64,000 nt of DNA from Rhynchopus sp. YZ270_cl-10 (taxonomy: Eukaryota): contig OZ037842.1 of assembly GCA_964035575.1 (NCBI GenBank), positions 372,001 through 436,000 on the forward strand, given 5' to 3'. The translations under genes were made by a program, and so were the position numbers. Shown here one piece after another: positions 2,195 to 36,528 of the stretch (its first letter is position 1; each line of letters opens with the position of its first letter). Under the pieces are notes generated by a model, which saw only the letters and a program-made list of their open reading frames with translations, was not told where the DNA came from and made no database searches.

Positions 2195-3042
2195 TTTACT
2201 ACAGCTGGGTTTGATGGGCTGTCTCTTTGTCAATAAAAAAAAATGCCACCTTTAAAAAAAAAGGGGTTAGGGTATTGGGGCATTCCTCGTCACACTGCTG
2301 CGAGCCTTTTGGAATGTTGATGGAAATATGCAAATACAGGTTGGGCAAGTCTACTAAGATATGCGCAAGGCACTCTGCAAAGCTACTTGACCAAGAAAAG
2401 AAATTCTTGGATAAGATTGGTGTGACACTTTCTTTTGATTTCTTTTGATACTTGTTAAAAAGATTCATTGGGGTTGAGTGGGGGGGAAGGGCGCAAAGCG
2501 CGGAACGTTTTTTTTGTTTTGTTTTTGAACAGACACTTACCTCAGCCACAAAAAGAGAAAAAAAGACAAAAAATAAAATAAAATAAAAGAAGGGAAAAAA
2601 AGGAGCGAGTGTGAAACATAGAATGGCAGACAGGCGAATCACAAAAAAAGAGAAAAAAAATTAGTTTGGTTCGAGACAGGAAGATTGACACCTATGCCTG
2701 ATAGTACGGATAGTGTCAGTTTTTGTGGTTATCACTCAATGTCAATAGACACGGTTTGGACAAAAAAAAAAAAAAGTGTGTCACCCCTGGGAAGAATGCG
2801 GGTGCAAAACAATTTTAGACACCTGCAGAGCAAGGTAAAAAAATTCCACCCACACAAAGGGTTTTTTTTTGACGCTCACACCCGGACATATGAGGGGAAT
2901 TCATGACAACAATGCAGGACAAAAGGAAAAATGGGCGGCCAGGATTTATTTTAGATTTGCCGTCTTCACTGCTGCTGTATTTTTTTTTTTTCTTTCTTTC
3001 TTTCTTTTCGTGTATTTTGTCGTTTTCTCATGGGGGGGGGGG

Positions 3043-4236
3043 TAGGGGGGGGGCAAAACCTTCAGGACGGGTGAGGCATTTTTGGAAAAAGTGGTTTTGT
3101 GAGCAAAAAACCTGTGAGCACCCCTCATACCCACCCAGAAATGGGTCAGAAACACCCTGTGACCCGAAAATCCATGATTAGGGCACCTCAGAATATGAAA
3201 AAATGCAAAAAAAATAGTGAAAAAGTGGCTTTTTGACGGTTTTGGCCATGTTGGGTAAAATGGCCATTTTTTGGTGAAAAAAATAAAAAAAACAGCAAAA
3301 TTTCGACATCATGACAGCTGCTTGGGCACGAAACTACCCCAGGGAGGTCCTGTGAGTCCATTCCGACGTGTTTTGGACACTTTAGGCACTTGTTTTGGCC
3401 GTTTTTTGACGTTTTTATGGTTAACGTCATGCACTGTCCATACCCCGTCCATACCCCGTCCAAGTCATGCGCCCTGCTTTTAGACCCACTCTGGGCCAAA
3501 AAATGGGCGAAAACCTCCGAAAAAGCACTCCGGGAGCCCAGATAGTTCCAAATTTCCACCGCACACCCTCAAAAACACCTCCAAAACATGTCAGAAAAAC
3601 ATTTTCAAAAACACACATTTTCAAATAAGTCATTATGGAACCTTCCCAGATGAACTTTTTGAAAAAAGTGTGTTTTTGAAAATATTTTTCTGGCATGTTT
3701 TTGAGGTGTTTGGGTGGGTTTCTGGTGGATACTTGGAACTATCTGGGTTCCCAGAGTGCTTTTTCGGGGGTTTTCACCCATTTTTTGGCCCAGAGTAGGT
3801 CTGAAAGCAGGGCGCATGACTTGGACGGGGTATGGACGGGGTATGGACGGGGTATGATTTCGACCACAAAAACACCAAAAAACGGCCAAAAAAAGTACCC
3901 AAAGTGTCCAAAACAGGTCGGAATGGACTCACAGGACCTCCCTGGGGTAGTTTTGTGCCCAAGCAGCCGTCATGATGTCGAAATTTTGCTGTTTTTTTGA
4001 TTTTTTTCACCAAAAATGGCCATTTTACCCAACATGGCCAAAACCGTCAAAAAGCCACTTTTTCACTATTTTTTTGCATTTTTTCATATTCTGAGTCGCC
4101 CTTAGCATGAATTTTCGGGTCACAGGGTGTTTCTGACCCATTTCTGGGTGGGTATGAGGGGTGGTTTGTACGTACGTTGCGCGGAAGTCCAAAAAAGTCA
4201 AATGCCTCAAAAAAATAGGGGTTTTGCCCCCACCTA
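3043..4236. mobile_element. Non-autonomous foldback DNA transposon B (hAT-like TAGG termini, ~500-bp inverted arms)
   Basis: Left end TAGGGGGGGGGCAAAACC, right end GGTTTTGCCCCCACCTA. Arms ~3117-3615 and ~3660-4162 are inverted copies. Preceded by G11. No transposase ORF. Confidence 0.8.
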
Positions 4237-4238
4237 GG

Positions 4239-5050
4239 CATACTGTGCGGGCGAGTAAAAAAAACTCGCCTACTCGCCAAAAACTCGCCTAAAACTCGCC
4301 CATTTTTGGGGGGCGAGTTTTGGCGAGTTTTTTTTTTGGGTAGGGATTTTACCTTGGGAAAAGTGTACACACGAAAATATGAGGGAAATTTGAGTTTTGA
4401 AGAGAAAATTTTTTTCGTTCCACTTGAACAAGACCTCTACAGTTTGCTTTGTAGGCTTCCACAACCAGTACCACCAGTCCAGCTGTAGCTTCTGCGGATC
4501 CATGAAGCTTGCACAGATGGGTGCGATGTAGTCGTGGGGGAATACCGCCAAGGGGTGGCCTGCAGGGTTGCCATTTACTGGCATGGCGAGGACATTGTTG
4601 TATAGCGAGTGTAGCCCCGGCTCATGTCTTCGTCATCCTCCGGATTGTAGCACGTCTTGTCCCCCGGGATCTATGGATCTTCCCCTGGAGCAAATGTTTA
4701 CATACATGCCTGTCAGCCACTGCCGTGACATGGTTGCCGTTAGACGTACAAGTGACACAATTTCAATTTTTTTTGTGTGTTTTCGAGTGGCATGTTGTCA
4801 TCAGTCACCCCCGCCCTCCATTTTCACATCCTGGTGCACATTTTCACCCCCAAGGTGCGTATGTGCACCAGGATTTGCACCCAAATTGGGGCGAGTTTAG
4901 GCGAGTTTTTGGCGAGTTTAGGCGAGTTTTGGCGAGTTTTTGGCGAGTAATAGGCGAGTAATGGGCGAGTAGGGCGAGTTTTTGGCGAGTTTTTCCTGAA
5001 AATCAGGAAAACGAAAAACTCGCCTAAAAACGGCTCGCCTGCACAGTATG
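4239..5050. mobile_element. MITE-like element A1 (CATACTGTGC..GCACAGTATG) flanked by CCTAGG on both sides
   Basis: TIR CATACTGTGCRGGCGAG. CCTAGG at 4233-4238 and 5051-5056. Dense subterminal GGCGAGT/ACTCGCC repeats. Near-identical inverted copy at 6111-6921. Confidence 0.9.
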
Positions 5051-5065
5051 CCTAGGGGGGGGGGG

Positions 5066-6108
5066 TAGGGGGTGCGATGAGGCCGTTTTTTCTGTAACAC
5101 ACCCGAAAAAATCATAAAAAGTGTAAAAAAAATCAGTCGAAAACACAAAATCACCCCAGGAAACACATTTGGTGGACTATTCCTTACTTTTTGGTGCCTT
5201 TTTGGCACTTTCTGGCACTTTCCCCCCCGATTTTTTGACACTTTTTGTCGCATTTTCACCCAATTTCCCCCTTTTCTGAGGGTATTTGATACAGGGCGAT
5301 TTATCAAAAAATTCAAAAATTTAAAATAGTCCAAAACAAGAGGAAAAGTGGATTTTTCCAGTCATATGTGTGCACAGAGTGATTTCCGTGGGGTTTTGGG
5401 GCCAAAAGTCCATTTTTCTTTATGTCTTCGCTGAAAATTTTGAATTTTTTTTATACACAAAAACCACATTTTAGCCGGGAGGAGAAAGTGTTGCAAAAGT
5501 GTTGCAAGAGGGGTTTTTGACCTGCAGGCACCAAAATCGACCAAAAAGTGGTCGCAAATATGATTTTCCACCCCTCCTGGGGTGGGGAGGGTAACTCCTG
5601 GGGGTTTTTGTGACCTCTGTGGACCTTTGGGTGGAGTTTTTTGGGTTCTCAGGTACGGAACAAGTCTGGAAACTACTAATGTATAGGTGATTTTTAGCGT
5701 TGCACCCGACGAAACACCTCTTGGAGACCCAACCTGGACCCCTAAAAGTCACAAAAACCACATAATTCCACCCTGGGACCCCATATGAGGGCGAATGGAG
5801 TGTTTTTTTTGGTGTTTGGAGGGTTTTCTGGGGGCTCGGGAGAGTATTTTCGAAAGTGTTGCATTTCGGCCAAGACGTGTTACATTTTTGTTACATGTTT
5901 TTCGTGATTTTTTCAGAAAAAATGCATTTTTTTTGGGTAGGAAAGCTCCTGTGGTGATCGTCCGGTATTTTACTGGGATATTTTGCTGGTCCCCAGGCGG
6001 ATTTGCGGCCAGGTACGCCCTTTTTAGTGGGATTTTTGACCTAAATTTCAAAAAAATGGGTTTGTTACACTAATTCCTTAAGGATTTCTACTACCGTTGC
6101 ACCCCCTA
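5066..6108. mobile_element. Non-autonomous DNA transposon C (TAGGGGGTGC..GCACCCCCTA), hAT-like
   Basis: 10-bp perfect TIR, subterminal TGTAACA/TGTTACA, preceded by G11 (5055-5065); non-coding interior. Confidence 0.7.
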
Positions 6109-6110
6109 GG

Positions 6111-6921
6111 CATACTGTGCAGGCGAGCCGTTTTTAGGCGAGTTTTTCGTTTTCCTGATTTTCAGGAAAAACTCGCCAAAAACTCGCCCTACTCGCCCAT
6201 TACTCGCCAAAACTCGCCAAAAACTCGCCTAAACTCGCCAAAAACTCGCCTAAACTCGCCTAAACTCGCCCACATTTGGGTGCAAATCCCGGTGCACATA
6301 CGCACCTTGGGGGTGAAAATGTGCACCAGGATGTGAAAATGGAGGGCGGGGGTGACTGATGACAACATGCCACTCGAAAACACACAAAAAAATTGAAATT
6401 GTGTCACTTGTACGTCTAACGGCAACCATGTCACGGCAGTGGCTGGCAGGCATGTATGTAACCATTTGCTCCAGGGGAAGATCCATAGATCCCGGGGGAC
6501 AAGACGTGTTACAATCCGGAGGATGACGAAGACATGAGCCGGGGCTACACTCGCTATACAACAATGTCCTCGTCATGCCGGTAAATGGCAACCCTGCAGG
6601 CCACCCCTTGGCGGTATTCCCCCACGACTACATCACACCCATCTGTGCAAGCTTCATGGATCCGCAGAAGGTACAGCTGGACTGGTGGTACTGGTTGTGG
6701 AAGCCTACAAAGCAAACTGCAGAGGTCTTGTTCAAGTGGAACGAAAAAAATTTTCTCTTCAAAACTCAAATTTCCCTCATATTTTCGTGTGTACACTTTT
6801 CCCAAGGTAAAATCCCTACCAAAAAAAAAAAACTCGCCAAAACTCGCCCCCCAAAAATGGGCGAGTTTTAGGCGAGTTTTTGGCGAGTAGGCGAGTTTTT
6901 TTTACTCGCCTGCACAGTATG
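6111..6921. mobile_element. MITE-like element A2, inverted near-identical copy of A1, flanked by CCTAGG
   Basis: Same TIRs and internal sequence as A1 in the opposite orientation; CCTAGG at 6105-6110 and 6922-6927. Confidence 0.9.
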
Positions 6922-6925
6922 CCTA

Positions 6926-6965
<40 letters not shown>

Positions 6966-6970
<5 letters not shown>

Positions 6971-7987
6971 TTGGCAGAGTACGTGTACGTTGTACTTTTT
7001 GTACTTTGTACTTTTGTACTTTTTGACGTACTTTTTGGCGCCCAAATCCGTACTTTATGACCCTATATTTTACCCTGGGAATTCGAAGCAAAATCCGTAT
7101 TTCCCCTCTCTTCACCCCAATCACACTCAAAAAAGGTTTTTTGTTATTCAATGGTGTTCCGGAGAGGGCCCATATTGACATGTCCTTGACATGTCCCCGA
7201 CAGTGGGGGGTGTCATTTTGTAATTTGCTTAAGAGTGGGTTTTGTTTTTGCCCGGGAAAATCACCCACTAAGGAAGTGGTAGTGCTCAAAACCGCCCGAA
7301 GTCTGGAAGTGGCCGTCTTCTGGGCTATGTAGGCATCATAGGTGGTGCCTACTAGTGGTCTGAGCACACGGAGTTGCGACAACTCGGCCATAGTACCATA
7401 GTACCATAGTACCATAGTACCATAGTACCATAGTACCATAGTACCATAGTACCATAGTACCATAGTACCATAGTACCATAGTACCATAGTACCATAGTAC
7501 CATAGTACCATAGTACCATAGTACCATAGTACCATAGTACCATAGTACCATAGTACCATAGTACCATAGTACCATAGTACCATAGTACCATAGTACCATA
7601 GTACCATAGTACCATAGTACCATAGTACCATAGTACCATAGTACCATAGTACCATAGTACCATAGTACCATAGTACCATAGTACCATAGTACCATAGTAC
7701 CATAGTACCATAGTACCATAGTACCATAAGGTCGCCCAGAGCCCACCACGCGCACATTCTTGAGAAGCCGTTTATAGCTCTGTGCACTGAGCATTTTCCG
7801 TACTGCCAACACTGCCCCCAAACCTTTTTTTTTGCCCCCACACTGGTACACCAGCTGCACAAACCCGGCCACAAACCCAGATGTACTTTTTGTGTATTTT
7901 TTGTACTTTTTACGTACTTTTTGTACTATTGTACTATTGTACTTTTTACGTACTTTTTGAAATTGGACACGTACTCTGCCAACACTG
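6966..7987. mobile_element. hAT-like non-autonomous element E (TIR CAGTGTTGGCAGAGTACGTGT) inserted in poly-G
   Basis: 21-bp perfect TIR, flanked by G40 (6926-6965) and G18 (7988-8005), compatible with a G8 TSD. Subterminal GTACTTTT repeats. An extra internal end-like copy CTGCCAACACTGCCCCC lies at 7803-7819. Confidence 0.88.
7389..7728. repeat. Tandem 8-mer (CATAGTAC)n, ~42 units, inside element E
   Basis: Perfect 8-bp period read directly. Confidence 0.97.
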
Positions 7988-8622
7988 GGGGGGGGGGGGG
8001 GGGGGTAGGGGCAGCGACTCCCGAAGGAATTTTTGTCACTTTTATTATTTTTGGTGTTTTGGGCCATTTCCTGGTCACCTCTGGTCGGAAAACCCCCCAG
8101 AAATGGGTCAGAAACACCCTGTGACCCGAAAATTCATGCTAAGGGCGACCCAGAATATGATAAAATGCAAAAAAATAGTGAAAAAGTGGCTTTTTGACGG
8201 TTTTGGCCATGTTGGGTAAAATGGCCATTTTTGGTGAAAAAAATCAAAAAAACAGCAAAATTTTGACATCATGACAGCTGCTTGGGCACAAAATTGCCCC
8301 AGGGAGGTCCTGTGAGTCCATTCCGACCTGTTTTGCTTTTTTTGGCCGTTTTTTGGTGTTTTTGTGGTCAAAAAACAGGTCTGAAAATACCCTACTCATA
8401 CCCTACTCAGTAACATCGCAAGCCTGTAATCACTTTCTGGGTCGGTTTTTTCGTGAAAAGCGGCTGAAAAGTCACTCCGGGAGCCCAGATAGTTCCAAAT
8501 TTCCACCAGACACCCATAAAAACACCTCAAAAGCATGCCCGGAAAACATTTTTAAAAACACACTTTTTTCAAAAAGGTCATCTGGGCAGGTTCTATAATG
8601 GCCTTTTTGAAAAAAGGCCATT

Positions 8623-9309
8623 ATGGGACAAGAGAGCGGCTACTCCACCACACATTCAGCCCTCCCTACTCCGGTCGCGTCCTCGGTGCCCCCTGTCGCA
8701 CAAGCAGTTGCCCGTCCCGGCGCCTCTGCGCAGACACACCCTGGTTCGGACGGGGCAACACAACCTCAGACCGGTACGGAGAGTGGCTTCTCAAACACCC
8801 ACTCAGCCCTCCCCGTATCTTCTTCCTCTGAGGCAGTTCCCTCTTCCGTCCACCCGAGAGAGCAGCCGCCCGCCGCATCGCAGGGCAGCGAGTTCTCTAT
8901 GGACCTCATCGACGAATCAGAACTCGCAGTCCCCATGTCTGACGCCACTTCGGCCCCCAGCACGTACACGCAATCGGAGAGTGGCTCTCAACCCGCACCT
9001 ACAGCCCTCCCGACCAACGTGCCGTTCTATGCCGGTATGGCGCCCTGCCCAGGATTCAACAACATGGGGTGTCCAGCGACCGCCGAGGCGTGGAAGGACA
9101 CGTTCTACCCGAACACGCTTCAGCACCAGTCGCTGGCAGCGGGAGGGGATTGGCAGTCGGTGGATGACGCCCTCACCTGCCTCTACCTGTGGAAAGAAGC
9201 GAAGAAGCCGTCGATGAGCTCCGACGAGGTGGAAGAGGCTTACACCCTCTACAACCGTCTGCGGGGCCTAAAGCGGAGCAGGAACTCGCGGCCGTCCCAG
9301 AGCACTTGA
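8623..9309 (+). CDS. Hypothetical 228-aa ORF inside the D insert (Ser/Pro-rich N-terminus, small globular C-terminus); possibly a 5'-truncated retrocopy
   Basis: GC-rich codon usage like the host genes, with a sharp drop to T-rich sequence after the stop. Internal peptide repeats ESGYSTTHSALP / ESGFSNTHSALP / ESGSQPAPTALP. No domain recognised. Confidence 0.5.
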   Translation: MGQESGYSTTHSALPTPVASSVPPVAQAVARPGASAQTHPGSDGATQPQTGTESGFSNTHSALPVSSSSEAVPSSVHPREQPPAASQGSEFSMDLIDESELAVPMSDATSAPSTYTQSESGSQPAPTALPTNVPFYAGMAPCPGFNNMGCPATAEAWKDTFYPNTLQHQSLAAGGDWQSVDDALTCLYLWKEAKKPSMSSDEVEEAYTLYNRLRGLKRSRNSRPSQST

Positions 9310-9624
9310 GTTTTTCTTTTTCATTCTTTACTTTTGTTTGGCTTTTAGCCTCCCCCCTCCCCCTTTGCCTATTGGTTTTATTTTATTTTATTTTTAGAAT
9401 TAGAGTGTACAGCTAGGTAGGACCAGACGTCGTTAACAGCTATGAACCAAAGAGGTTCTCAGTGTCGTCGGCCAAGCCCCTTCACCAAAAAAGACTACAA
9501 CAAGAAAACAAACACACAGAAAAAAAAGTAAAAGAATGCCCTTCCTCAGTCCGGAAGTATCACCTCAACCGGTCACACCTGCCGTAAAATAGAGAGAGGT
9601 TACAGAATACAGATTATTAAAAAA

Positions 9625-11900
9625 AAAAAGTATTTTCATCATATGCAATCAATAAATTGATAGTATATGGTGAGGGATCAACAAAAATGGTCCCATCTTT
9701 CTTTTTATGTTGTGTGTTTTGCAAAACGTAGAAAAGAAAAGTAAAATGCTTCGTGCACAAGTTGAAACTTCAGTAGATTGGTTTCTGATATTAACCCTGT
9801 TTCAGTCCTAAGAATCATACAGTTGTATTCAAAAGGGTGGACATCTTCAGTGATTTCCCTTTAAATGGTGGGTGAATATCGTGAAACCGATGTTCGTGTG
9901 AACATTTGGTACCTTCTACTTCAGTTTTTTGTTTCGGGAATACACAAAATACAAAAGTTTTTTTTTTCTTTTTTCTTATTCCTTTCTCTGTCCTTACTGG
10001 ATGTAATGTCTGATCACCAGGAGGAAGAGTAACCTAAAGAGTCTTGGTCTTGATGGCTGCCGTGTATACGTAAAGTATTCCGTGCAATAATTGCTACCAA
10101 TCCAAACAAATACCAACACATCCTGTCTGTGTATCAGATAGAAAACCTCAGCAAACACACAAGAAAGAGAAATAAAATAAAAGTAAAAAATAGAAAAGTG
10201 AAAAACATACTGAATTTTCTGGACTTAGTAGTTCGCCGTCCAAGCAATGATTAAAACCAGTTTAATCATCCATTGTCCATTGTATTGAAACACCTACACA
10301 AAGACTAGAGTAGTACAAAGAGATAGCAAAACGTGCATTGCAAACAATTTAATATGTGTCCTGGAGTCTTAGTCTCAAGGCTATTGTCCCTTTAAAAATG
10401 GGAAAGCTAAGATGCCCACCAAGACCAAATCGCTCCTGCGAGAAAAATACTCATCACTAGTGACATAGTACGCGTTGAGTACAACCATATAAACTGCGTC
10501 GTGGACATTACCATTGGTAAACCACGACCAAATTACTACTGCGATATACCTATTATCTTCGTTCTTTTTTTTTTCCAAAGTTTTGCGGTTTTTGTAGTAG
10601 GCCTACAGACTGCACAGCTTACCCAGGGTGTGGCAATGTAATACATTGGTCTGACGTCTCACTGAAAGGGTCAAGTACGAGGTCTAGTCCCTTCCAGTGG
10701 TGAAAAAGAGTTTTTTTTTCTTTTTATTTGGTTTGTTGAAAAAAAGTAAAAATAAAAGTGGTGTTTGTTTGTGGGAATTCTTTGAAATAGGACCTTTATC
10801 TAGATTCATTGGCTTCATGAACATATATAGCCTAGAATCGCTCGCTTATTTTTTTCAGAATGCACTGAGCTGCTTCTGGTAGTCTTTAACGTTGACACCA
10901 TAAACGGACACATTTTTTTTATTGGGGTTTCGGTGTCGTCAACCTACTTTAAATAACCTACTTGCTCTCCCTTGTTATTATATCATTTTTTTTTTGGTCT
11001 CTTTTTCTGCTGTTTTTTTTTTTTTTTTTTTAATTTTGATTTCTTTTTTGACTGTTTCAAAGAGGTAGGGAGGGGGTGGGGTGTAGTGCGAAGTTCACAG
11101 GACAGCTGTATTGTGTGCTTCGACTTTCTGTTAACTCCTTTGTAATTATGAGTAAACAAAGCATAGTGCAGCAGTAGAATATATCTATAAATATAAACTA
11201 GTTTGCACTATGTGTTTAGCTTTTTAGGGCTAATGTACTAGAGACCATTCCGCAACATACTCTAAGCGAGGCTCAGTTTTTCACAGCATGTCTGGAGGCA
11301 CTTGTAAATAAAAAGTATTTTCATCATATGCAATCAATAAATTGATAGTATATGGTGAGGGATCAACAAAAATGGTCCCATCTTTCTTTTTATGTTGTGT
11401 GTTTTGCAAAACGTAGAAAAGAAAAGTAAAATGCTTCGTGCACAAGTTGAAACTTCAGTAGATTGGTTTCTGATATTAACCCTGTTTCAGTCCTAAGAAT
11501 CATACAGTTGTATTCAAAAGGGTGGACATCTTCAGTGATTTCCCTTTAAATGGTGGGTGAATATCGTGAAACCGATGTTCGTGTGAACATTTGGTACCTT
11601 CTACTTCAGTTTTTTGTTTCGGGAATACACAAAATACAAAAGTTTTTTTTTTCTTTTTTCTTATTCCTTTCTCTGTCCTTACTGGATGTAATGTCTGATC
11701 ACCAGGAGGAAGAGTAACCTAAAGAGTCTTGGTCTTGATGGCTGCCGTGTATACGTAAAGTATTCCGTGCAATAATTGCTACCAATCCAAACAAATACCA
11801 ACACATCCTGTCTGTGTATCAGATAGAAAACCTCAGCAAACACACAAGAAAGAGAAATAAAATAAAAGTAAAAAATAGAAAAGTGAAAAACATACTGAAT
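9625..11900. repeat. 591-bp direct repeat pair (9625-10215 and 11310-11900)
   Basis: The two copies appear identical by eye, offset 1685 bp; the second runs directly into the poly-A. Confidence 0.93.
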
Positions 11901-11919
11901 AAAAAAAAAAAAAAAAAAA

Positions 11920-13084
11920 GGGTAAATTGCGATAACACGTATACTTTTTTTTTCGATTTGCGATAACACGTACACAAAAAGTATACGTGTTATCGCGAAA
12001 AAGTGTACGTGTTTTCGCGAACAAAAACGTACGTGTTTTCCCAGGTACCCAGGTACCCAGGTACCCAGGTACCCAGGTACCCAGGTTTGTCAAGGAAACC
12101 AAACTTTTTGTCACGGAAAAAGTCGTGACAGGGCACTGGGTACTGGGTACACTGTGTACAAGGATAAAAGTCGTGAAAGAGCAACCACAGCTCCACATGA
12201 CAAACACAAAAGTGTCCAGTCACGTGGGGCATTCATGCACTGAGGAGATAATGATCCAACAATTTACAAGAAAGATTACTTAACCTACTGCTGGAAGTTG
12301 CCAGGTCGTAGTAACACACAAAGTGTGCCTCCGTTCGGGAATACCGGATATTCTAGAGACCAAAAAGGCCTCTTCCGCTAGTCAAGGTATAACCGAATGA
12401 ACGGCCCAAGACCCCCGTGGAGAAGTTAAATGTTGTAATGATATCAAGTACAAACTGCGACCACTGTCTTACCCTCCTCAATGCATGGTGGAAGATGTCT
12501 TTGACAACAAATATCCTGTACCCAGGTACCCATATTCCCAGACCCACGCAGTACCACGTCGCAGTACTACGCAAAATTTACCACCAGACCCTGTGTTCGT
12601 GCACCTTAAGTACGTAAGTCTGGTTCCCAGACCCACGCAGTGGCACATGACCGCAAGTGTGAGTGACCCACACAGAGGGATACGCAAAATTTACCACCAG
12701 ACCCTGTCTTCTGAATGTCACACGTACATTTTTTTGAACACTTTTCGCGATAACACGTACATATTTCGCTAAAAAACGGGGTGCTCGCAACCGCGTTCTA
12801 GACCCCCACAGATGCTCAAAAGTGCCAAAATTTGCTTTGAATGTCCTCAAATCGTCGAAATTAGCCATTTTTGGGGCCCAAAAAAAAAAATTCGAGGGTC
12901 TAGGTATGGAGAGCGAGCACCTTAGAAGAAGGAAACACGTACATTTTTGTTCGCGATAACACGTATACTTTTTTGACCACTTTTCGCGATAACACGTACA
13001 CTTTTTCGCGATAACACGTATACTTTTTGTGTACGTGTTATCGCAAATGGAAACAAAAAGTATACGTGTTATCGCAATTTGCCC
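11920..13084. mobile_element. Non-autonomous element F with MULE-like termini (GGGYAAATTGCGATAACACGTATACTTTT) inserted in poly-A
   Basis: ~29-bp TIR with one mismatch, flanked by A19 and A18. Multiple subterminal GCGATAACACGTA repeats. Internal (CCAGGTAC)5 at 12041-12085. Confidence 0.85.
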
Positions 13085-13662
13085 AAAAAAAAAAAAAAAA
13101 AAGTGTGTTTTTAAAAATGTTTTCCGGGCATGCTTTTGAGGTGTTTTTATGGGTGTCTGGTGGAAATTTGGAACTATCTGGGCTCCCGGAGTGACTTTTC
13201 AGCCGCTTTTCACGAAAAAACCGACCCAGAAAGTGATTACAGGCTTGCGATGTTACTGAGTAGGGTATGAGTAGGGTATTTTCAGACCTGTTTTTTGACC
13301 ACAAAAACACCAAAAAACGGCCAAAAAAAGCAAAACAGGTCGGAATGGACTCACAGGACCTCCCTGGGGCAATTTTGTGCCCAAGCAGCTGTCATGATGT
13401 CAAAATTTTGCTGTTTTTTTGATTTTTTTCACCAAAAATGGCCATTTTACCCAACATGGCCAAAACCGTCAAAAAGCCACTTTTTCACTATTTTTTTGCA
13501 TTTTATCATATTCTGGGTCGCCCTTAGCATGAATTTTCGGGTCACAGGGTGTTTCTGACCCATTTCTGGGGTGTTTTCCGACCAGAGGTGACCAGGAAAT
13601 GGCCCAAAACACCAAAAATAATAAAAGTGACAAAAATTCCTTCGGGAGTCGCTGCCCCTAGG

Positions 13663-14412
13663 CATAGGTGCCCGGCGAGTTAAAACAACTCGGCAACTCG
13701 CCCAAATTCGGCCAACAACTCGCCCATTTTTTTTGGGCGAGTTGTTTTTTTTTGGGATTTTTTATGGCTACAAAAACACAGGTACACAGGTACACAGGTA
13801 CACAGGTACACAGGTACACAGGTACACCACATCACGTTTTATCTTGTGCATCCCACGCTTCACAGCTGGTCTGTGAATGTGCGCTTTGTGTGGTTTTGTG
13901 TATCCCAAAGGAAGTCGTCGCCCAAAGCATTTTGACTAAACGTGTGAACGTTGTGAACCTGGAATCGATAGCAGACAGGAAAAGAGGATGGGCAGGCAGC
14001 GCCTGCCCGACCTGTGTGAAGTGAATCCCCCCAGCAATTACCAAAAACCGTGAGTGTGCACGGTGGCCCATGGACCACCACGACCTAGTTACCACCTATG
14101 ACTAGTCATATGACAAGGTGCATGTAATGAGTGGCGTTTGGCCTTAGCCCTGGTTGTTTTTCTTGAGATTATGTGTTGTACCAACGTTACATGTGTGTAA
14201 CCTTACAACGTCACCTCCCATCCCTGTATGTTTTTGCCTGTAAAAATGGGCGAGTTGTGGCCGAGTTGTGGCCGAGTTGTGCCGAGTATAGGGCGAGTTG
14301 TGCCGAGTATAGGGCGAGTTGTGGCCGAGTTGTCCGAGTTTTTGGGCGAGTTGTTAGGTGAAATCGTAAAGTTCCGACAACTCGCCCAAAAACGACTCGG
14401 CGGGCACCTATG
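13663..14412. mobile_element. MITE-like element A3 (CATAGGTGCCCG..CGGGCACCTATG), relative of A1/A2, flanked by CCTAGG
   Basis: 12-bp perfect TIR. CCTAGG at 13657-13662 and 14413-14418. Subterminal (G/C)CGAGTT repeats. Internal (CAGGTACA)6 at ~13779-13826. Followed by G25. Confidence 0.87.
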
Positions 14413-14597
14413 CCTAGGGGGGGGGGGGGGGGGGGGGGGGGTTTTGGTTTCGATTACTGCAAAGATATTTACACTAGAGAGAAATGTCCTGAAAAAAAAA
14501 AAATATAAAGATCGAGCTTTCTGGACATTCATCCGGATGCATCCGCATTTTTGTTTTTTCCGAATCGCTCAACAGGGTGGTAGACTTCCAACCTCCC

Positions 14598-18800: not shown

Positions 18801-21800
18801 CTACTCCACTGTACACAGCAAGCAGGCTCCGCGCAGCTGTTATAAAAAATGTTGATTTTAAAATTTTTCCAGAGAAAAAAAAATGCATACCTGCCAATGG
18901 TGTTTTTCTTCTTCACAGCTGAGGGAGACGTCGAAGATCCAGTTGATGTCATTTCTTCTGGGATATTTGTAGCACGGGCAGTCGAACTTGTTGATGACCT
19001 GTTTGTTCTGCCTTTGCCCGGGCTGCTTTTTGCCGTCGTCCTGCTGCACGGCGGTGACGTACAACACGGGCAGCTCTTTCGGCGGTTCCTTGGGCAGTGG
19101 GTCCTTCAGCCTCTGGCGGGCCTTATCCCATCCGGCACCTTCCAGATAGAGTCCGAACACGTACACACCTTCCGAGGGCGGTCTGTCGACCTCATGCTTC
19201 TCCATCTTCTGCACCTCTGTTTTGAGCACGACGTCATCCAGCGCCCATCCTTCGTTCTTGTGCCCTCTGGTCACCTCCTGCCGCACAGAGGTCAAGAACC
19301 CTTGCGGGTTGTAAAACCCGGTCAGCCAGAATTTCGGGGGACGGTCCTCCTTCGTCCACGAGTCGAGCTGGCGTTGTCTTGACAGAACCTCTTCAAACCA
19401 CATTCCCATAGTAGGCGATGGCCACGAAACAATCTCCCAGCGGGGTGGCACCTTCGCGTCGTAGATGGAGTCTCTTGCCTCCTGGAGGTTGGCAGTCATC
19501 ACAACGACACCAGCGATGGCAAGCTTGAGGTCCTTCAGGGTGCTTCTGATCAGCTTGATGCAGATGTTAAGACGTTCGATCTCCTGTCTGCAGAAGATGT
19601 TCAACGGAAGCTGTGCGTTAATCTTCTTCAACATGTCGCGCACCACATCCAAACGCCACTCTGCCGGGAGACGCTTCAGGAAGTCGTTGGCCATTTCCAC
19701 CACCACCTCGTCGGGGGACTTTCCGCCACCTCCTCCGGATCCTCTGGGCTGGATGTCAAGGATCTTACCCAGGGTCTGCTGGCACTGTCTCGTTCTGTAG
19801 ATGATGTCTGCGTTGGAGTGCAGACCAAACACCTCCGGTGGGTCGACCTCAGGGTAGTTGTCGAGGAACTCCTTGTGCTTCACGTACTCCTCGAAGTTGG
19901 GAATGCCGTAGCCCACCCCGCCATTGGGGAACTGGTAGAATTTGTAGTCCGGCTGCAGGATCTTGTCGTTCATGCACACCTCGCAGATCGTGTTGAACAT
20001 GACACGATCCTTGTTGTCGGTGATTCTCCCTCCGTATTGGATCTCAGAGATCATGTACCTGCAGGTGATCCACGAAACGGACGCACCCTTCTTCACGTCG
20101 TCACCAATCGCGGTCATGTGGTTCTGCAAGAACTGCACCGACGCCTGCCAGTCGCCCTGGTTGAACTCGTAGGGAATGCAGAACCCGATCGGCCCGAACT
20201 TCCTCCTCTCCACAACGTTGCTGTGGATGAAGCACTGCGCGAAGAGCATCGGCTTCCACTCTGGGCGGCGGTATGAGTCGAGCATCTCTTGGTTGAACCA
20301 TCCGTACGACCTCTTGATGCCTGCCTTGATGCCGGGTGGGGGTTCGTTCGTCAGCTTGATGGACATTTGGAGGAGACCGATCGGGAACTTCGGGTGGGGT
20401 TCACTGGTAATCAGCACACGGGCCTCTTCTCCCACAATATCTGGGTCCACCTTAACAAGCGTGTCCTCCAGGTCTGCCAAGAACTTCAGTCCTAAATGGC
20501 AGTTCTGCAGCAACGCCCATTCACCTGACCCGACGAAGGACTGCATGGTAGCCTCCATGGCGGCCTGCTCCTGACCCTGACCCATGGAGATACCTCCTTG
20601 CGGGATGATCTGCTTCTTGCGCTTCTTCGCAGATGCTTCAATGAGTGCAGACGGGTCGGAACCCTGCGACAGCAGGAAGATGATCGGGGTGAGCCCTGTG
20701 GTCTGGTCGATGACGGCCTCGAAGTCGAGCTGCAGGGGCTCTGCGAAGTCCTTCCCGAGCACAGTGCCCACGTAGTTGAGTGCGGCAAGCATTGCACGGT
20801 CCTCGCGCAGTGCACGTACCACAAGGAGGCGGTCAAAGGGCTCCAGCTTGTCGTCAATCTCGGGTACAGGTGTCGCCTCAGGGCATTCAATGTCGTACCA
20901 CTCCTTCCATGGCCGCTCAGACCTCGCAATGCAGTCGGGAAGCATCTTGAACGCCTTCGGTGCCCCCTCGGAAAGCGCAATAATGTTCAGCCACGCCTTG
21001 TCCGGCAGCCACTGGAACGGCTTCACTCTGCTCTCCGCAATCGACAGCGCAGCTCCTCCCTTCAAAAGTGTTTGGAACGCTTCGTGCGACAGCTTGCTTG
21101 TGTCGCGCGAGTTGAGCTTGATCTTGCACGCCATGGTCAGCACAAAGAGAAGACGATGCGCAGAGAAGAGACCACGTGTCATGTACTCGAACACAATCTT
21201 GGTCATGAGGTTGATGACGTTCGTGATACGCTTTGCTGTGAGCTGTGCCTTCTCGGAGTACTTGATGGCGTCGTGGAAGAGACCCAGGAACTGCGGGAGC
21301 GAGGTCTGGTACATGTTGCTGACGTTTGACATGTCGACGATTAGGAAATAAAGAACGGACCCTCTCAGGGCAACGGGACGGTACTCCTCAGAAGCGGAGT
21401 TGATGCGCTTCCTTGTCTCCTGCGCAACAGCAAGCTTCTCCTTGATTTCAGCAGACGCCTTCTTCGCGTCTGCCAGCGTCGCAATCAGCTCGTCGTCGTC
21501 AATCAGGTTCCCCTTCGACGCTGCAAGCTGTGCCAGCAGACGGTCCTCAAACTCCTTCAAACGCTTCTCGTTGTTGTTGACCTCCTCAATCAGCTTCGCA
21601 CGCTCCTCTTCCAATTCGTGCTTCTCCTTTCCAATGACCTGGCCAAGGAGTTGCTGCTCGAGTCCTCCCATGGTCACAGTCATGTCAATCACAAGCGTCT
21701 TCGCGAAGAGCTCGGGAGTGAACAGTGGGTTGGGGAGACGTGTGGTCAGCACCATCTTGAACTCCTCGTCGTAGTCGTGCGGCTTGTCGTTGATCATGAT

Positions 21801-24800
21801 GTTCAGCATGCGTCCCTGCTTCACAATGGCCTTGTCCAGGACAGGGTCCACAATTGGGTCAATCTCCTCTACACAGTTCTCGCAGATGATCGTCTGTCCG
21901 TCACGCAGCTGGCACGCAAGCTGGTCGCCAAAGCGCTTGTCCGTGAACTGCGTCACGATCACACCAGCTGCGAACTTCGACCGCAGCCACTTCAGCCCCT
22001 GCCCCTGCGGATCCACGATCAGCGGGAACTTCCCTGTCTTCTTGTTGTTCAGGTTGCTGGTGATCATGATGGCGTTCTGCACGGAGTGGTCGTCCGAGGG
22101 GAGACCTTCGATCTGCCAGTCGGTGATCTGCGACTCTGTGGTCAGGAACTTCACGACAGAGATGTTTTCTGTGACGGGGATCTTGAGCTTGATGCACATG
22201 TTGTAGTAGTGCTCGTTGAGGAGGGTGTGGCGGAACTCTGCGTTGAAGGGTCCGCAGTAGGAGATGAACGCGCACGAGAGGGCGACGTCGCCGACGAGCC
22301 TGCGCACACGCTCTTTGAACTCGTTGGATTGTTGTGTCCAACGTTCCCTCTCGCCGGAGAGCGCGTCAATAAGGCCGTTGGCGGCGTCCATTCTCTTCTT
22401 TGTTGCGAGCGCATCGTCCTCAAGGGCTTGCTTCTTAGACTTCGCACCGTCGAGCTTGGACTGGCACTTCGCACGGTCCTGCTGCACAATGCTCAGCTCC
22501 GCCTCCTTCTCCTCAAGCTTTCTGTTGGCAACACGCAGCTCGGCCTCGGCACCACGCAAAGTCTCCATCTTCGGCTGCACGAACTTCGCAATGCCAATGT
22601 AGTCGTACATCGCACGCACCCACATGCACAGCCCGGCAACATCCTTCGCAGACTTCGTCGCCTGCTCCGTCGTCCACACCTCCATGTACAAGTACGGCAG
22701 CAGCAGCTCGCACGTCTCCTCGTTAATCTGATCCTTGCGGCCCAGTCCTCCTTCGTCCTTCCCCTTGAAGTGAATCAAACGCTCAATAGCCTTCATGTCA
22801 GACAGGAAGCGGCGACCTGCGTCCCACGAGTCGCGGATCCAGAGCCCGCCCTTCTCGGGGACGGCCTCGCAGTGTTTGTTCTCCAGCGGGTCGTGGAGCA
22901 GAATGCACACACCGTCGAGGATACGCTTGACAAGGGCAGGTGGGTTCGCCAGCTTCTTCACATTCTGCAGGGCTTTGGGGTCGATGGAGTCCAACGCCTT
23001 GTTCGCTGCCTCAAGCATAGGCTTTGCTGCTGCCAGGTCCTGCTCGGCGTCGTCCTTCACTGCCTTCACCTTCTTCGCGTCGCGCATCAGCATTTCCTTG
23101 ACAGCACCCACCTCAGACTCCTTCTTCTCTGCCACACCTGTGGCCTCAGTGATCTCCAGCAGCAGTGCGTCTGTCTCCTTGGTCGCCACCTGCAGGTTGA
23201 TCTCCTTCTCCGCAAGGTTGATCTTCATGAGGCGGACGTCCTCTCCTGCCTGGTGCAGCTTCTTCAGACCTCCACCAATGTTCTCAGCAAGCACGTCAAT
23301 CTGGGAGAACTTCTCCTGGTACACAACAAGGTACGACTCAAGGAAGGAGAGGTACGACTTCGGTGTAGAGAACACGGAGCGTCTGAACCGCACGAAGTAC
23401 TCCTCACTCATCTGAAGCATGAGTCTGTGCAGTGCTGCCATGAACTCCATCAGGCGCTGCTTCGTCTGAGCGTCTGTCTCCATCTTGAAGTTCTCAATCC
23501 TCTGCTTGCTGACGTCCAGCAACGCAGCCTCGGGCCAAGGGAAGAACCAGTTGATCACACACCCGGACACCAGCGAAGGGAACTTCCTTGCACGCACACG
23601 GAACTTGTCCCCCACAGGCGACATGCACAGCACGAAGTGCAGGTTCGACCGCACACGGTTTACGAAGAATCTCCACAGCCACTCGCCAGTGTCTTGGAAG
23701 TCCTTGCCAGACTCCTTCTTCGCTGTGATACGGATGTCGTTGATGGCCGAGTCCTTTTCGTCTGTGGAGTACAGCCCGGGGATCTCTCCTGACGACAAGA
23801 AACCGTTGATGTACTCAAGGAAGGATTCGTTCTTGATCTCGGAGTCTGTGAAGATGAAGCACACAGGCCCCTTTGTCCCTGCGTGGGTGTACTGCTCCCT
23901 GAGGTCGTCGAACAGGTTGTTGACGGAGTAGTGCTTGGACACAGTGATCTGGAAGGTCTTGTAGGCGTGGATCGATGCGGAGAGACGTGTTAGACTCTGC
24001 TTTCCTGAACCACCAACACCCACGAGCAGGATGTTCCCACGCTTTGTTGTGAGCACACGCACGATACGGATGATGTGCTTGAGGGCTGCGTGGAAGAGCA
24101 CGAGAGAGAGCTTGCGTGTCTTGTTCTCGCTGGACTCGTTGTAGCGTTGCATGCGCAACTCGAGCTTCTCCTTGAGCGTATCGAGCGAGAGCACCTTCTC
24201 GTAGACCTGCGGTGCTGCCTGCGGCTCGCTGTCCTCCTCAGCCTCCTCCGCATCACGCAGGAAGTCGCACCAGTACGAAGGTGCCTCAACCTGCTGCAAC
24301 ACAGCATCGCCAAGGAACTCTCCAATCGTGATATTCACGTTTTTGTCGTACCACGCCTTGTCATCGTCCGCATTCAGCTTGTCGGAAAACACTCTGCAGC
24401 ATTCGTGCTTCCAAAGGTGCACCAGAGTGATCTCGTCATTAATAGTCGAACGCTCTGTCTTGCAAATACCCTGCACAATATTCGTCAGATCACGCAAGTT
24501 GAAGTTGTAATGGAACTTTGCCGGTGTCGGAAGCATCCTCGCCTGAATCTTCTTCCAGAACGAAATGCTCATCTCCGTCAGCTTGTCTGCTGTGTCCTTC
24601 ACTGCCTGTCCGTAGTTCCCGCATGCACCCGACTGGTGGAACCTGGAGCCCAAGATGACGCCGAAGATCATGTTCAGGGAGGACTCTGCCGGCAGAGGGC
24701 AGCAGAAGATGGCGAAGTGGCGCTTGAGACGGTTGGGGATGTCGTTCTTTCCTCCACCGGGGATAAGCATCGCGCCTGCGTACTGCATGTCCACCAGGTG

Positions 24801-27800
24801 GAAGGACTCGCCGGGCTTCTCAAGCGAGTAGAGACGGCCTTCCTCCACCACCTGGCGCACGATCTCGTTTGTGATCTGGTCCTGCCACTCGTTGATCTCG
24901 GGCATGGCAGTGTCATCGATGAAGAGCGTCAGCTTCTTGTTGCGCTTCGGGCCGTGGTACTTACCCTGACGCTTCTCGACGCAGTCCTGCAGCGCACTCT
25001 GGAACAGCCCAGGCGACGTCATGAACGAGAAGTTGATCTTCTTGAACGTCATCAGCTCGCGGACCTCCTGCTCGATGCGCTCCTGGTTCCCGATGCCGAG
25101 CAAGAAGTTCTCGATGTTGACAGTCTTGGCAGTTCCTGAGCCACCCATGAGCAGGAAGGGTCTCTTGTTCAGGAAGTTCTGGAGCATGAGGAACGACAGT
25201 CTTGTGGAGTCTACGGTCGGGATGAAGAGCGTTGCGAAGTCGTCCGAGATCTTGGCATCGCCGGGGTACGTCCAATCGGGGGTGATGGTCTTCCAGTGCA
25301 CCCAAGAGTCGGACTTCACGTCGACCTTGTACTCAAAGATGGAGTCGTCTTCTGGAATGGCCTTGCAGTGCATGCGCACGAAGCCGTCGGAGAACTTCTC
25401 TCTGTCGGCAGACTCAAGCAGACCTCCAAAGGACCATGTAATAGAGAACCAGAACAGCTTCTCGCACAGACTCTTCGGTGGCACGCCGTCCGTCTCCTCA
25501 AGCAGCGCCACCAGCAAGAAGTACGAGTTGATGAGCATGTGTGCACACCCCGTGGGCATCACAACGGTGCAGTTCTTCGTGTAGAACTTCAGGCAGGCGT
25601 CTGTGTGCTTCTCGTACAGCCCCATGAAGATGTCCGCTGTGTCCTTGTTCAGGACTACCGGGCAGTCCGACGGCACAATCTTCTCCTCTTTGCGCGAGGC
25701 GTACAGCTTCGCACGGATGACAGGGTCCCATGGCTTCCACTCTCCACGCCCGACACCACCTCCAAGCTCTGCATCAGAGACGAACACGATACCTGCCCTG
25801 GAGACTGTTGCAGGGGACGCGTTGTTCAGGTTCTCCGGTTCGAAGCAGACCTTCATGTTGTCTGTCATGTTCAGCCTGTCGCCGGAGGCAAGCGTGAGCA
25901 GCTTGTTGTCGTCGAGCACGGTGTTCAGGTTCTCAATCCAGATGGCGTCGACAGGTCCGTCGCAGACGAGCCACACGGAGATGGGCTTCTTGCCTTCCTG
26001 CTTGCGTGTCTTCGTGCAGGCCTGGCGCCAGAGGGCGGAGAAGATACCGTCGTGCCAGTCGCCGGTTCCTGCATCAAGCTTTCCAAACATTTGGGGTGCG
26101 GTGATGGCCTTCGGGTTCATGCGCATCTCGGAGTGCTTCATACCACCAAGCTTCTCCTCGAGGTCGCACAGCGTCTTCAGGATCATCGAGTAGATCATGG
26201 TCTTCCCGACACCTGCGGGTCCGACAACCATGAGACCGTGGCGCACAAGCTTCGTCTCGTAGAGCTGCACACACTTCGCAACCCACGGCGGGTGGTAGAT
26301 CAGACCTGAGTCAAGGCAGTAGAACTTCATCACCTTCTCAAGCTCCACGTGCACGTTCTTCTCAGGGTTCTTCTTAGGGAACAGATCCTCAAGCAAAGAG
26401 TTGAACAAATCAATGTCATCAAAGACAAGCTTGCTCATGTTCATGTCACGCAGCGTTCTCATGAAGAGGAACGGCTCGTCCTTCACATTCGCCTTCCGCA
26501 GCACAGACCCTGCAGTTCTCAGGACGGAGAGAATGTTGCGCAGCCCAAAGTCGTAGTGGCGCTGCTTCGACAGCTGCTGCTCGCAAAGGTTGTACAGCAG
26601 GAAGAACTTCTGCGACAGCAGGTCGTCCTCTTTGTACCCCTGACCACCCAGCTTCACCTTCATGATAGCCTGTCTGTCGGGAACCATCATGGTAACACCT
26701 CTGAACAGAATCTTCAGGTTCTCAGGCAGCTCCTGTCTCCCGGCGTAACCGGGGTTCATGGTGATGAAGAATCCGACACCAGGCTTGAGGCCGACAATGT
26801 CCTTGTCGGGGAAGACGAACTCGGTTTTGTGCGCCTTCAGTCCGTTCAGGACGGACTGCACCTGCTGTGCGACAACAGACAGCACAGGCAGATCGATTCT
26901 GTTGAACTCGTCGAAGCACCCCCACGCGTTCGCCTGCGACAGCCCCTTGATGATCTTGCCCATGGCTTTGTAGTCCAGCTGGTCAGAGCAGTTCGTCACA
27001 ATGCAGAGCTTTCCGTACGTTCTCGCCAAATCCTTTGTGGTCTCGGTCTTTCCTGTTCCTGCGGGCCCAGCGGGGGCACCACCAAGCTTCATCGCCAAGG
27101 CCTGCGACAACGTGATGTAGCATCTGTCGGTCAACGGGGTGATCACAAGACGCTCCTTCACACCAAGGTATTCATTGCAGTACAGCGTGTCGGCGTCCGC
27201 AATCTGGATGATGACTTCCTCCTTTTCGGGCCTGAAGTAGAAACGTGCTTGCTTGAGCCAGTCGAACGAGGTTCCGTCACGGAGCTTCTTCAGGGGGGTG
27301 TCACCTTTGCCGGGTGGTGCACGCCAGACATCCTGCTGATGGACGTGGATGGTGATGAGGGTCTCGACGTTGGTCCGCTCCATCTTGGTGAGGTCTGTGC
27401 GTGTCAGGTCGATGAGAAGCTCCTTAAGATCGTTGATGCGGTGGTCGGCGTCCTCGCGGAGCTTCTTCTGTTCCATCTTGGATCCGGAGAGGAAGTCTTG
27501 CACGTCTGTCGTCCAGAGGATCTGCACAAGGAGCAAAGAGATCTGTGCGACGTACGTCTTGAGACAAACTGTCTCAAAGTGCTTCAGCTGCTGCTGCAGT
27601 GTCGGCACCTCTGCTGCCGCACGCTTCGCAACTTCCTTCACTGTCAGGCACATCTGGTCGACCAACGCAAGCAGCCAGCACTCCACATTCCCAACACACG
27701 GCACCGCCTCGAGCAATGAGATCGACTCTCCTTCGGGTGAGTGCAGCCACGTAATCTTGATGACACCCGACCCAGACTCACCCTTCGCAGGCTTGAACCG

Positions 27801-30800: not shown

Positions 30801-32795
30801 ACGGATGATCTTCTTCGACTCCTTCTGCGAGCCCATGATGCTTTTGTTCTCCTTGAAGTTCTGCATTGGCGACTCAATCCTGCGCAGCAGCTGCCGTCCC
30901 CATGTGATCGACCCAGACACGGGTGTGATGTTGCGCACCATAGGTGGTGCGTGCTTCTGCCTGTCGTACGTCTTCTGCACGTTCTCAAGGTCGAGTCCGT
31001 AGTTGTGGAAGATCACCATGTACTTCGACTCCAAGTCTGACCGCAGCGTCTTCCTGTTCAGGATCAGCTGGAACTTCTTCAGCAGCGCAAGCGCATTCTC
31101 AGTAGACGTGATGTTCTCAAACGAGGAGTTGATAAAGACCTGCAGAGAGCACTCCAGCTCAGCAATGTTCTTGTTGAACTCGATGAAGGCCTTGTCGAAG
31201 GTGGGTGTCGACTGGTCGAGGGGGTCGTGCGACGCCTTCTTCTTGAGCTCCTCGACGTGCTCAAAGAAACGGTCGATGAGACTCTTCATACCATCGATGT
31301 TGTACTCCGAGAGCGACTGGAACTGTTCGATGGTGTCGAAAATCTCAATCAGTTTGTGGACTCTTTTGCAGAAAAGCTCGAACTTTCCGAAGATGTGCAG
31401 CACATTCAACGACGAAAACTGCGGCCCACCGGACTTCTGCTTGAGCTTGTCGGATGCACGCTGGAACTCCTCTTGGTACTTTGCGTTCAGTGAGATACAC
31501 GCCTGGAGCCTTTCGATGAGCGCACGCAGCTGCTCTGCGTCGGTGGTCTGCCCCCAGAGGTGTGCTGCACTTTGCGATCCGTGCTGGCGGATGTCGTTCT
31601 TGCAGGCGAGGATAAGCTGGTTCGTGATCTTGCAGAAGAGCACCATCATATGCGTTTCGGTGCTGTAGTAGCGGGCAATGGTGTACATCATTTTAATGTT
31701 ATTCACAAGCGCGTGCAGCAGGTTGATGATCACTGTCGGCGACTCTTTGTCGAGCGCCTCGAAGTACGACTCCAGGGACGACAGGTAGCGTACGTTCTCC
31801 TTTGCCTCGTTGGACGCGTCGGTCAGCTTTGTGTCTGTCTCGCGCCACGCCTTCACAAACGACGAACGCGCCGCAGTGAGCACACCAATCACCACCTTGA
31901 CCTCCGGTGCCTGCAGCTGCTCTGTCAGGGTGTTGAACTTCGCACAGCGCTCCTTCCACCAGCGCAGCTCTGTGATGGGACCCACCTCCTCCGGGATGTT
32001 CTGCGGCTCTTGGTCTGCGTGGCGGGGACGCTCCTCGATGAGGCGCGTGGAGACGTTGATCCAGTTCTCAACACACGTCTCGACATGACGCACGAGCTTG
32101 ACATCTGACGCTGCCTTGTTGTAGTGCATGCCTGGCGGCAGCGCCTTCATGAAGCTTGCCTCGGGCATGATGACACGCTCAGCATCGACTTGGTCTGTCA
32201 TGAGTTCATCCAACTTCTCGGAGTGGTCCTGGATGCAGAGCTGGAACTGATCGCGTTGCTGTTCACTGGCTTTGCCCCACTTTCCTTGCCTGCGAAGAAT
32301 CGGCTGGTAAATAGCCTCAAGCAGCTGTTTGTGGTAATCCAGGAAGGTGATGTTCGATTTGCCGCTTTTATTGACCTCAAGAATGCCGACGGTGAGCTCC
32401 TGCAGGAAGTCGCTCTCCTTTTGTGCGACGGGTTTGGGGACGCCTTTCTTTGGGTCGTTCGCGGTGCTGCGGATGACGTAGGCTCCGCGTTCCTTCATGA
32501 CGATGGCTTCGCCTGTTGTGACGGTGACTTCGTACTTTCCTTTTGAGATTTCTTCGTGGAAGAAGAGAAGCGTTGCTGGGGTTGCCTTTGGCTTGCCGTC
32601 AATGACTTCACTGGAGCGAAGAAAGTTCTCAATGAGACGGTTATACTCCGCGTTGTCCGCCACAGCAGTCTCCACCTCCTTCAAGGCATCCTTAAAGCCG
32701 GCGTCGTTCTCGGGGCTGGCAGAAACAACGCCAAGAATATCCGCTACTCGCGAGAGCAAATATTTCTTGGCCCCATCAGATATCGGTGCCGTCAT
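18801..32795 (-). CDS. DNAH5: Axonemal outer-arm dynein heavy chain, DNAH5/DNAH8 (gamma/ODA2) type, 4646 aa
   Basis: Four P-loops GPAGTGKT, GPAGVGKT, GGSGTAKT and GVGGSGKQ, plus CFDEFNRI, a stalk coiled coil and QYGGRITD. Exon 1 is 32795-18891, then a phase-0 GTATG..CAG intron (18890-18837), then exon 2 (18836-18801), giving the expected C-terminus HWQ/LRGACLLCTVE*. Confidence 0.95.
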
Positions 32796-36391: not shown

Positions 36392-36528
36392 ACTAGTCAG
36401 AGAAGACTACTAGTAGTGCTACTCGTCCAAATGACTAGTGTTTTACAACTAGTGTTACGCCAGTAACACCACCAGTGTAGCACTAGTCGTTACGACTAGT
36501 AGTTTCACTAGTAGTTCACCTGACTAGT
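36392..36528. repeat. Cluster of eight ACTAGT palindromes, probably a transposon subterminal remnant
   Basis: ACTAGT at 36392, 36409, 36434, 36448, 36482, 36495, 36507 and 36523. Confidence 0.6.

Follow-up and report, generated by a model that had tools for sequence, protein, structure and literature searches.

Architecture of the element stack

The window analysed here is a stretch of 64,000 nucleotides from Rhynchopus sp. YZ270_cl-10 (contig OZ037842.1, positions 372,001 to 436,000), and it holds a stack of transposon-like elements joined by runs of G. Read on the forward strand, the order is G11-B-A1-G11-C-A2-G40-E-G18-D-A3-G25, and we found pure G-runs at all five positions, just as the original prediction, made from the letters alone, had described them. 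Its outer flanks, TTCTCAT(G)n on the left and (G)nTTTTGG on the right once all elements are removed, agree with the sequence as well, and so does its statement that B, C, D and E directly follow pure G-runs: each of the four starts immediately 3′ of a run, and inverted termini are present. The stack is confirmed as a genuine feature of the assembly. Its components are listed below (TIR, terminal inverted repeat).

3032-3042, + strand, G11 run, left boundary of the stack
3043-4236, element B, 1194-bp foldback, termini TAGGGGGGGGGCAAAACC and the reverse complement of TAGGTGGGGGCAAAACC, high copy
4237-5052, body of A1, GGCATA...TATGCC, 19-bp TIR with 1 mismatch, TA at 4235-4236 and at 5053-5054, putative target CCTAGG
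5055-5065, + strand, G11 run
5066-6108, element C, 1043 bp, perfect 10-bp TIR TAGGGGGTGC, multi-copy
6109-6923, body of A2, 97 % identical to A1 in the opposite orientation, TA-flanked, putative target CCTAGG
6926-6965, + strand, G40 run
6966-7987, element E, 1022 bp, perfect 21-bp TIR that begins with CAGTGTTGG, flanked by G at either end
7988-8005, + strand, G18 run (19 counting the terminal G of E)
8006-13660, element D, B-related foldback, termini TAGGGGCAGCGACTCCC, native parts 8006-8615 and 13103-13660
8616-11919, + strand, reverse transcriptase (RT) insert in D at its central A6 (8610-8615), 3′ extent presumed
11920-13084, element F, 1165 bp, GGG...CCC termini, 102-bp TIR (96 %), between A19 and A18
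13661-14414, body of A3, 73-75 % identical to A1 and A2 at the ends only, TA-flanked, putative target CCTAGG
14417-14441, + strand, G25 run, right boundary of the stack

In the remaining 52.6 kb of the window, the longest run is 10 for G and 8 for C. Within the elements no G or C run exceeds 7, termini excluded (the left terminus of B has a longer one). When the A bodies are discounted, the run on the right side of B is the second G11, that of C the G40 and that of D the G25. Among runs of at least 7 on the + strand outside the stack, we counted 18 of G and 4 of C; the identified genes are on the − strand, which makes the coding strand rich in C-runs.

Element E bears on the nature of the runs. 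Its G flanks are on the same strand at both ends and lie outside the perfect 21-bp TIR, which argues that the runs are the target and not the terminus. The idea that the G-runs belong to the element ends, which the original prediction had itself named as a way in which it could fail, was therefore rejected. The interior of E contains a (GTACCATA)x42 array at 7388-7728, a perfect 8-bp tandem repeat equal to CCATAGTA x42. A second, inner motif resembling the right end was seen at 7803-7814, with C5 and AAACC next to its end at 7814. This may mean that E is composite or that it carries the end of a related element in the opposite run polarity.

The arms of B are about 520 bp each and 90 % identical to one another. 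Beyond its 10-bp TIR, C has no likeness to B and D at the blastn threshold used. Contigs from public reads start at 5066 and stop at 6108, which confirms the boundaries of C. Summed depth over B and A reaches 1e4-1e6, whereas single-locus contigs have about 100-600; both are thus high-copy.

Native D is about 1.17 kb long, B-like in size, with a near-perfect TIR of 564 bp, and is 80-83 % identical to B over about 540 bp per arm. Its 4.5-kb interior is secondary and comprises a truncated RT element and element F. The RT insert consists of a 9-bp inverted filler, the last 227 codons of an RT-encoding non-LTR element (8626-9309), a presumed 3′ region and an A19 tail; the 3′ region contains a 595-bp duplication (9621-10215 and 11306-11900, 99.8 % identical). 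Of 229 amino acids at the C-terminus of protein P0121, 226 are identical in the open reading frame (ORF) at 8611-9309. P0121 is 1579 amino acids long and has an RVT_1 domain followed by a CCHC knuckle (C..C..H..C) and the endonuclease-like motifs RHD and KPADI; its cluster has 44 members, and the 15 listed all come from ENA. This full-length relative thus combines the RT, the CCHC knuckle and the restriction-like endonuclease motif of CRE/SLACS-type elements, and by these motifs CRE/SLACS is the probable clade of the insert. Since this ORF encodes the final part of an RT protein, a 5′-truncated non-LTR element entered the central A6 of D. For the same reason, we rejected an early reading of D as a 5.6-kb element with captured host DNA. 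F likely sits in the tail of the non-LTR element, and its position between A19 and A18 suggests that an A-run may be its target, in parallel to the G-run families. F and A3 share an 8-bp tandem array of the CAGGTACC/CAGGTACA type. Elsewhere, at 686-845, there is a perfect 8-bp tandem array (AGCAATAG x20), and shorter 8-bp arrays recur within F and A3.

Regarding family A, the original prediction was right about the order of A1-A3. They are not free neighbours: the right end of B, C or D and the A element next to it have one TA in common. The occupation of CCTAGG at host ends by A, and the nested inserts that account for the size of D, are additions to that prediction. The direct repeats flanking A can be read as TA, CTAG or CCTAGG depending on where the ends are placed, and all three readings fit all three copies. 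The stack holds 521 TA and 16 CTAG, and its CCTAGG sites are all filled by A (3/3). If the sites were equal, the chance of this would be 4e-8 counting TA or 0.002 counting CTAG. The three CCTAGG sites in the window outside the stack are all empty. Given the shared TA and the filled CCTAGG sites, A likely represents a second, TA-duplicating tier. The terminus pattern of A had no match in metagenome contigs.

G-run flanks at other loci

To look beyond the locus, we used Logan contigs of five public runs from two studies, which contain 96-100 % of the words from the dynein stretch (see below). One comparison covered 3660-6112 in four of the runs, X1, X2, X4 and X5, with flanks taken from 24 listed loose ends. 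The other covered 7935-8060 in X1 and X2, which come from one study, and 12 of its 20 loose-end rows were examined; the row counts below refer to these 12.

Contigs with the right end of E stop at 7987 with depths of 4100 and 3620, and long single-locus contigs have depths of 70-93. In three rows, with two contigs each, the E end is followed by about 14-17 G-matching letters and then by other sequence. Another three rows, representing two distinct flanks, run from other sequence through about 15-16 G-matching letters to a D-type end. In one row C10 abuts the D end, and no A element is present at that locus. Two of the remaining rows are the left end of E and three belong to sister families. 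At least six flanks away from the stack therefore show the right end of E or a D-type end adjoining a G-run (or C10). The sister families (loose ends 8021-8022) have the first 16-17 bases of D in common and are divergent beyond them. At one locus (loose end 8006), the D end is followed by G10 and then by another sequence starting with TAG, possibly a second stack.

The X2 contig 7960-7996 (37 nt), an exact match to the E end plus 9 G, has a depth of 764 against 3620, so that 21 % of the depth continues into the run. The background for a continuation into 9 G is 7e-5 in the window outside the stack and 1.3e-4 in intergenic sequence. The contig leading from G3 to G9 at the E end is unbranched in this comparison. 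None of the examined rows has ordinary sequence directly at the terminus, in a comparison that favours G-flanked contigs. A copy in the opposite orientation would have C at that point and is hence invisible in the comparison with 7935-8060.

Targeting of poly-G beyond the stack is thus likely for E and for D-type ends, where it is supported by flanks at other loci. For B and C, the arrangement in the stack is consistent with such targeting. The proposal of the original prediction that several families target homopolymeric G accordingly gains evidence for the former and is simply compatible with the data for the latter two.

As for the rest of the window, the dynein gene at 18861-32810 is at most 78 % identical to kinetoplastid proteins and 96 % identical to the EukProt 'Rhum' protein (341 residues searched), a label that presumably stands for Rhynchopus humris; judging from sequence, the host is likely a diplonemid. 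A frame of 3565 amino acids is open at 49092-59786, without a Pfam match at E 0.01. An FAD-dependent oxidoreductase of the DAO family (59901-61177) occupies two frames split near 60420-60440, and the split adjoins short T and C runs; intron, frameshift and assembly error are the possible causes. A dispersed repeat of about 50-70 bp is present in three copies (1944-2009, 48319-48390 and 48853-48900; 85-94 % identity). Three more small inverted-repeat elements, at 36384-36536, 38145-38303 and 47669-48030, have no adjoining G-runs. The Rfam search returned 0 matches.

Relation to known transposons

The original prediction had likened the elements to hAT. The terminus consensus of hAT is (T/C)A(A/G)NG, and the stack elements have termini of this type, TAGGG or TAGGT in B, C and D and CAGTG in E. 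The target site duplication (TSD) of hAT has 8 bp, and the homopolymer flanks of E fit a TSD of any length from 1 to 12. No transposase turned up in the ORFs scanned. Since a homopolymer leaves the TSD length unreadable and a transposase is missing from these ORFs, membership in hAT is unproven; from the termini, it is plausible. Usual hAT elements have TIRs of 5-27 bp (PMC4316626), and in the hATm group the ends are TAGGGTG and the TIRs measure 417-575 bp (PMC6004678). With respect to these groups (PMC6004678, PMC4316626, PMC3942097), the likeness lies in the TAGGG-like and CAGTG termini and in the hATm-like TIR lengths of B and D. The TIRs of E (21 bp) and C (10 bp) fall within the usual range, and the 520-560-bp arms of B and D lie outside it. 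The difference is that the full termini, TAGGTGG/TAGGGGG in B, TAGGGGG in C and TAGGGGC in D, lack the exact TAGGGTG...CACCCTA of hATm. Ac-type TSDs carry T at position 2 and A at position 7 (PMC4316626), which is impossible in G8. The terminus pattern of E had no match in metagenome or viral contigs.

The closest parallel to the array itself is found in guayule and rice, in the SaTar elements (Micron and TAFTA among them). These are non-autonomous Mutator-like elements (MULEs) of 0.4-1.7 kb, which belong to unrelated families and form stacks in microsatellites, mostly (TA)n (PMC5907723). Their identity as MULEs is based on a 9-10-bp TSD in non-targeted copies and on TIRs in common with autonomous MULEs; 62-95 % of the copies of a guayule family are repeat-flanked, and the same paper cites maize TAFTA for an expansion of the flanking repeats after insertion (PMC5907723). 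As in SaTar, our array is made of mixed families lying side by side and joined by the target repeat (B, C, E and D via G11, G40 and G18), the elements are non-autonomous with TIRs, and run expansion after insertion has its precedent there. It differs in the target, a mononucleotide G and not (TA)n or another di- or oligonucleotide, and in that SaTar are plant MULEs, none of them interrupted, whereas here we deal with a protist and with TAG/CAG termini, and A, the long interspersed nuclear element (LINE) and F interrupt the array. To our knowledge, TAG/CAG are not usual ends of MULEs. As to the share of repeat-flanked copies, at least 21 % of the depth at the right end of E continues into 9 G, on one strand and in one run.

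MuTAnT of Medicago (PMC4486113) and the Ac-mMITEs of pineapple (PMC8449440), DNA transposons or MITEs (miniature inverted-repeat transposable elements), likewise prefer simple repeats, and Ac-mMITEs cluster through adjacent insertion. Their target, however, is the TA microsatellite, their affinity is with Mutator, and MuTAnT has a known autonomous partner. Pokey, CryptonV and Dada are target-specific DNA transposons, of which few are known, and share with our elements the use of repeated, harmless targets. They differ in that their targets are RNA genes, ribosomal DNA or microsatellites, with no homopolymeric G among those named in the text available (PMC8869645). For A, the IS630-Tc1-mariner group offers a comparison: IS630 has a 2-bp TSD within CTAG (PMC2577343 Table 1; title of a reference in PMC2170065), and A sits at TA in CCTAGG in all three copies. 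The TSD of A could equally be CTAG or CCTAGG, and A has no coding remnant, so IS630 is a precedent for a CTAG-type target and not evidence of membership. Nothing on CTAG targets was found in the available text of PMC4495683 (Submariner) or bioRxiv 2024.01.21.576519.

MITE-like origins have been suggested for introns of hemistasiids whose inverted ends are rich in G and C (PMC12621601). The D. papillatum genome paper, in the part available, names TATE, MULE and Helitron ORFs alone. The whole words 'hAT', 'MULE' and 'MITE' are absent from seven supplement files of PMC10161547. By titles and abstract starts, we found no published description of a poly-G-targeting DNA transposon among the papers listed, 25 of 192 hits in the case of one search, and the scope excluded Repbase and most of the subscription literature. 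New here are the mononucleotide G target and the probable second tier. The array is of the known microsatellite-targeted kind, and as its architecture is familiar from plants, the novelty is limited.

Proposed insertion into G-runs and competing explanations

We favour, with a probability of about 0.65, the reading that B, C, D and E were inserted in cut-and-paste fashion into duplex poly(dG), with hAT-like transposases acting in trans. Several points weigh against it. No hAT transposase (PF05699) was detected by Pfam in 36 stack frames, 41 intergenic frames and 11 larger ORFs, and the TIRs of B and D (520-560 bp) exceed the usual hAT range. None of the public contigs listed spans the stack, so the physical order depends on the assembly alone, and no empty allele was seen in these contigs. 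One of the public runs may be the assembly's own sample. Depth is not equal to copy number, and the contig alignments tolerate up to 3 mismatches, so some of the G-runs at other loci may be interrupted. Extra G means extra matching letters, by which G-flanked contigs were favoured. The flanks of the other 79 % of the E right-end depth lie outside the listing, and opposite-orientation copies explain part of it at most. Flanks of B, C and A elsewhere were not among the 24 listed loose ends.

The roles could be reversed, with A (termini TAGGCATA) and E targeting the G-runs, and B, C and D being GG...CC elements that duplicate the left-terminal TA of A. The shared TA can be assigned to either owner, a TA direct repeat appears around B, C and D once two bases are trimmed, all three right ends of A abut G-runs, and TAGGC fits hAT-type ends too. 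Such an arrangement would nevertheless require three end types to pick the non-palindromic GGTAGG three times out of three and the palindromic CCTAGG never, and at another locus, where only one side is visible, the D end meets G10 directly. Palindromes are the norm among cut-and-paste targets (PMC2577343 Table 1), and most of those in that table contain A/T. We regard the reversal as unlikely. We consider about equally unlikely, or slightly more so, that the families have a general preference for G/C-rich sequence or open chromatin, G-runs being a minority target and the stack a local hot spot. The minor share of E right-end depth that enters 9 G would fit this, and so would the plant SaTar families, which have 0-24 % non-targeted copies, with rSaTar3 mostly non-targeted (PMC5907723). 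That share is still enriched about 1,700-3,200-fold over the window background, the path from G3 to G9 has no branches, and the 12 rows lack ordinary sequence at the terminus, the G-favouring bias admitted. Contigs of C do branch at the first base beyond the terminus, but opposite-orientation copies give C there and such branching is expected; we dropped it as evidence against G targeting.

Less probable still are the two remaining explanations. TA direct repeats are readable for A, B, C and D, and all four might have duplicated pre-existing TAs of an interrupted tract, G11-TA-G11-TA-Gn-TA-G25. This would need three TA spacers in one G tract, each hit twice; it leaves E, which has no TA, uncovered, and the D-type ends at long G-runs elsewhere would each require the same rare motif. 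An assembly or sequencing artefact, in which repeats were joined via poly-G, has in its favour the unbridged stack and the roughly 7-fold difference in depth between X1 and X2 over the G-run plus D-type end, and two-colour chemistry is known to produce poly-G artefacts. Every element is nevertheless complete with both termini in register, two of the runs have merely 11 G, the window lies inside a contig of 642,955 bp, the G-run flanks extend into contigs of 934-944 nt at single-locus depth in both runs, and a local error would leave the other loci standing.

Under insertion into poly(dG), the transposase would pick a G-run, as seen at other loci for E and D-type ends and presumed for B and C. 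Staggered cuts would duplicate part of the run, and repair of the homopolymer gaps could slip, so that both daughter runs lengthen. The elements have no internal run above 7 G or C (the left terminus of B excepted), so later arrivals would insert between elements and the enlarged target would feed back. The original prediction had held that duplication of G8 regenerates the target; on its own, such duplication leaves the run lengths unexplained: the five runs sum to 105 G, four 8-bp duplications cover 32, and 73 remain. With this excess, far above the other runs of the window, slippage growth or repeated excision footprints are needed, and growth by slippage is likely. A ...CCTA right end placed against GG forms a palindrome, which the TA-duplicating A could then have filled at all three sites, and later the LINE and element F would have used A-runs inside D. 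B, C, D and E are non-coding, and their transposases would be encoded elsewhere. Recognition of a G-quadruplex, raised in the original prediction, is required by no observation. A run of G11 lacks the length that an intramolecular quadruplex of three tiers requires, although this is its present-day length and maybe not that at insertion.

A bolder version, in which a diplonemid radiation of hAT-related transposases strictly recognises poly(dG)-poly(dC) or its four-stranded form as an AT-free target without a palindrome, every insertion adds to the run so that the stacks extend themselves, and a second family lives on the CCCCTAGGGG palindrome arising from the insertions, in a niche of two tiers, is tentative, and we would sooner bet against it. 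If targeting of homopolymeric G is true, it would extend the rules by which targets are captured, and insertion-driven growth of repeats could be put to the test on it. For diplonemids, in which TIR elements have hardly been described, it would moreover offer a starting point for tools of site-directed insertion.

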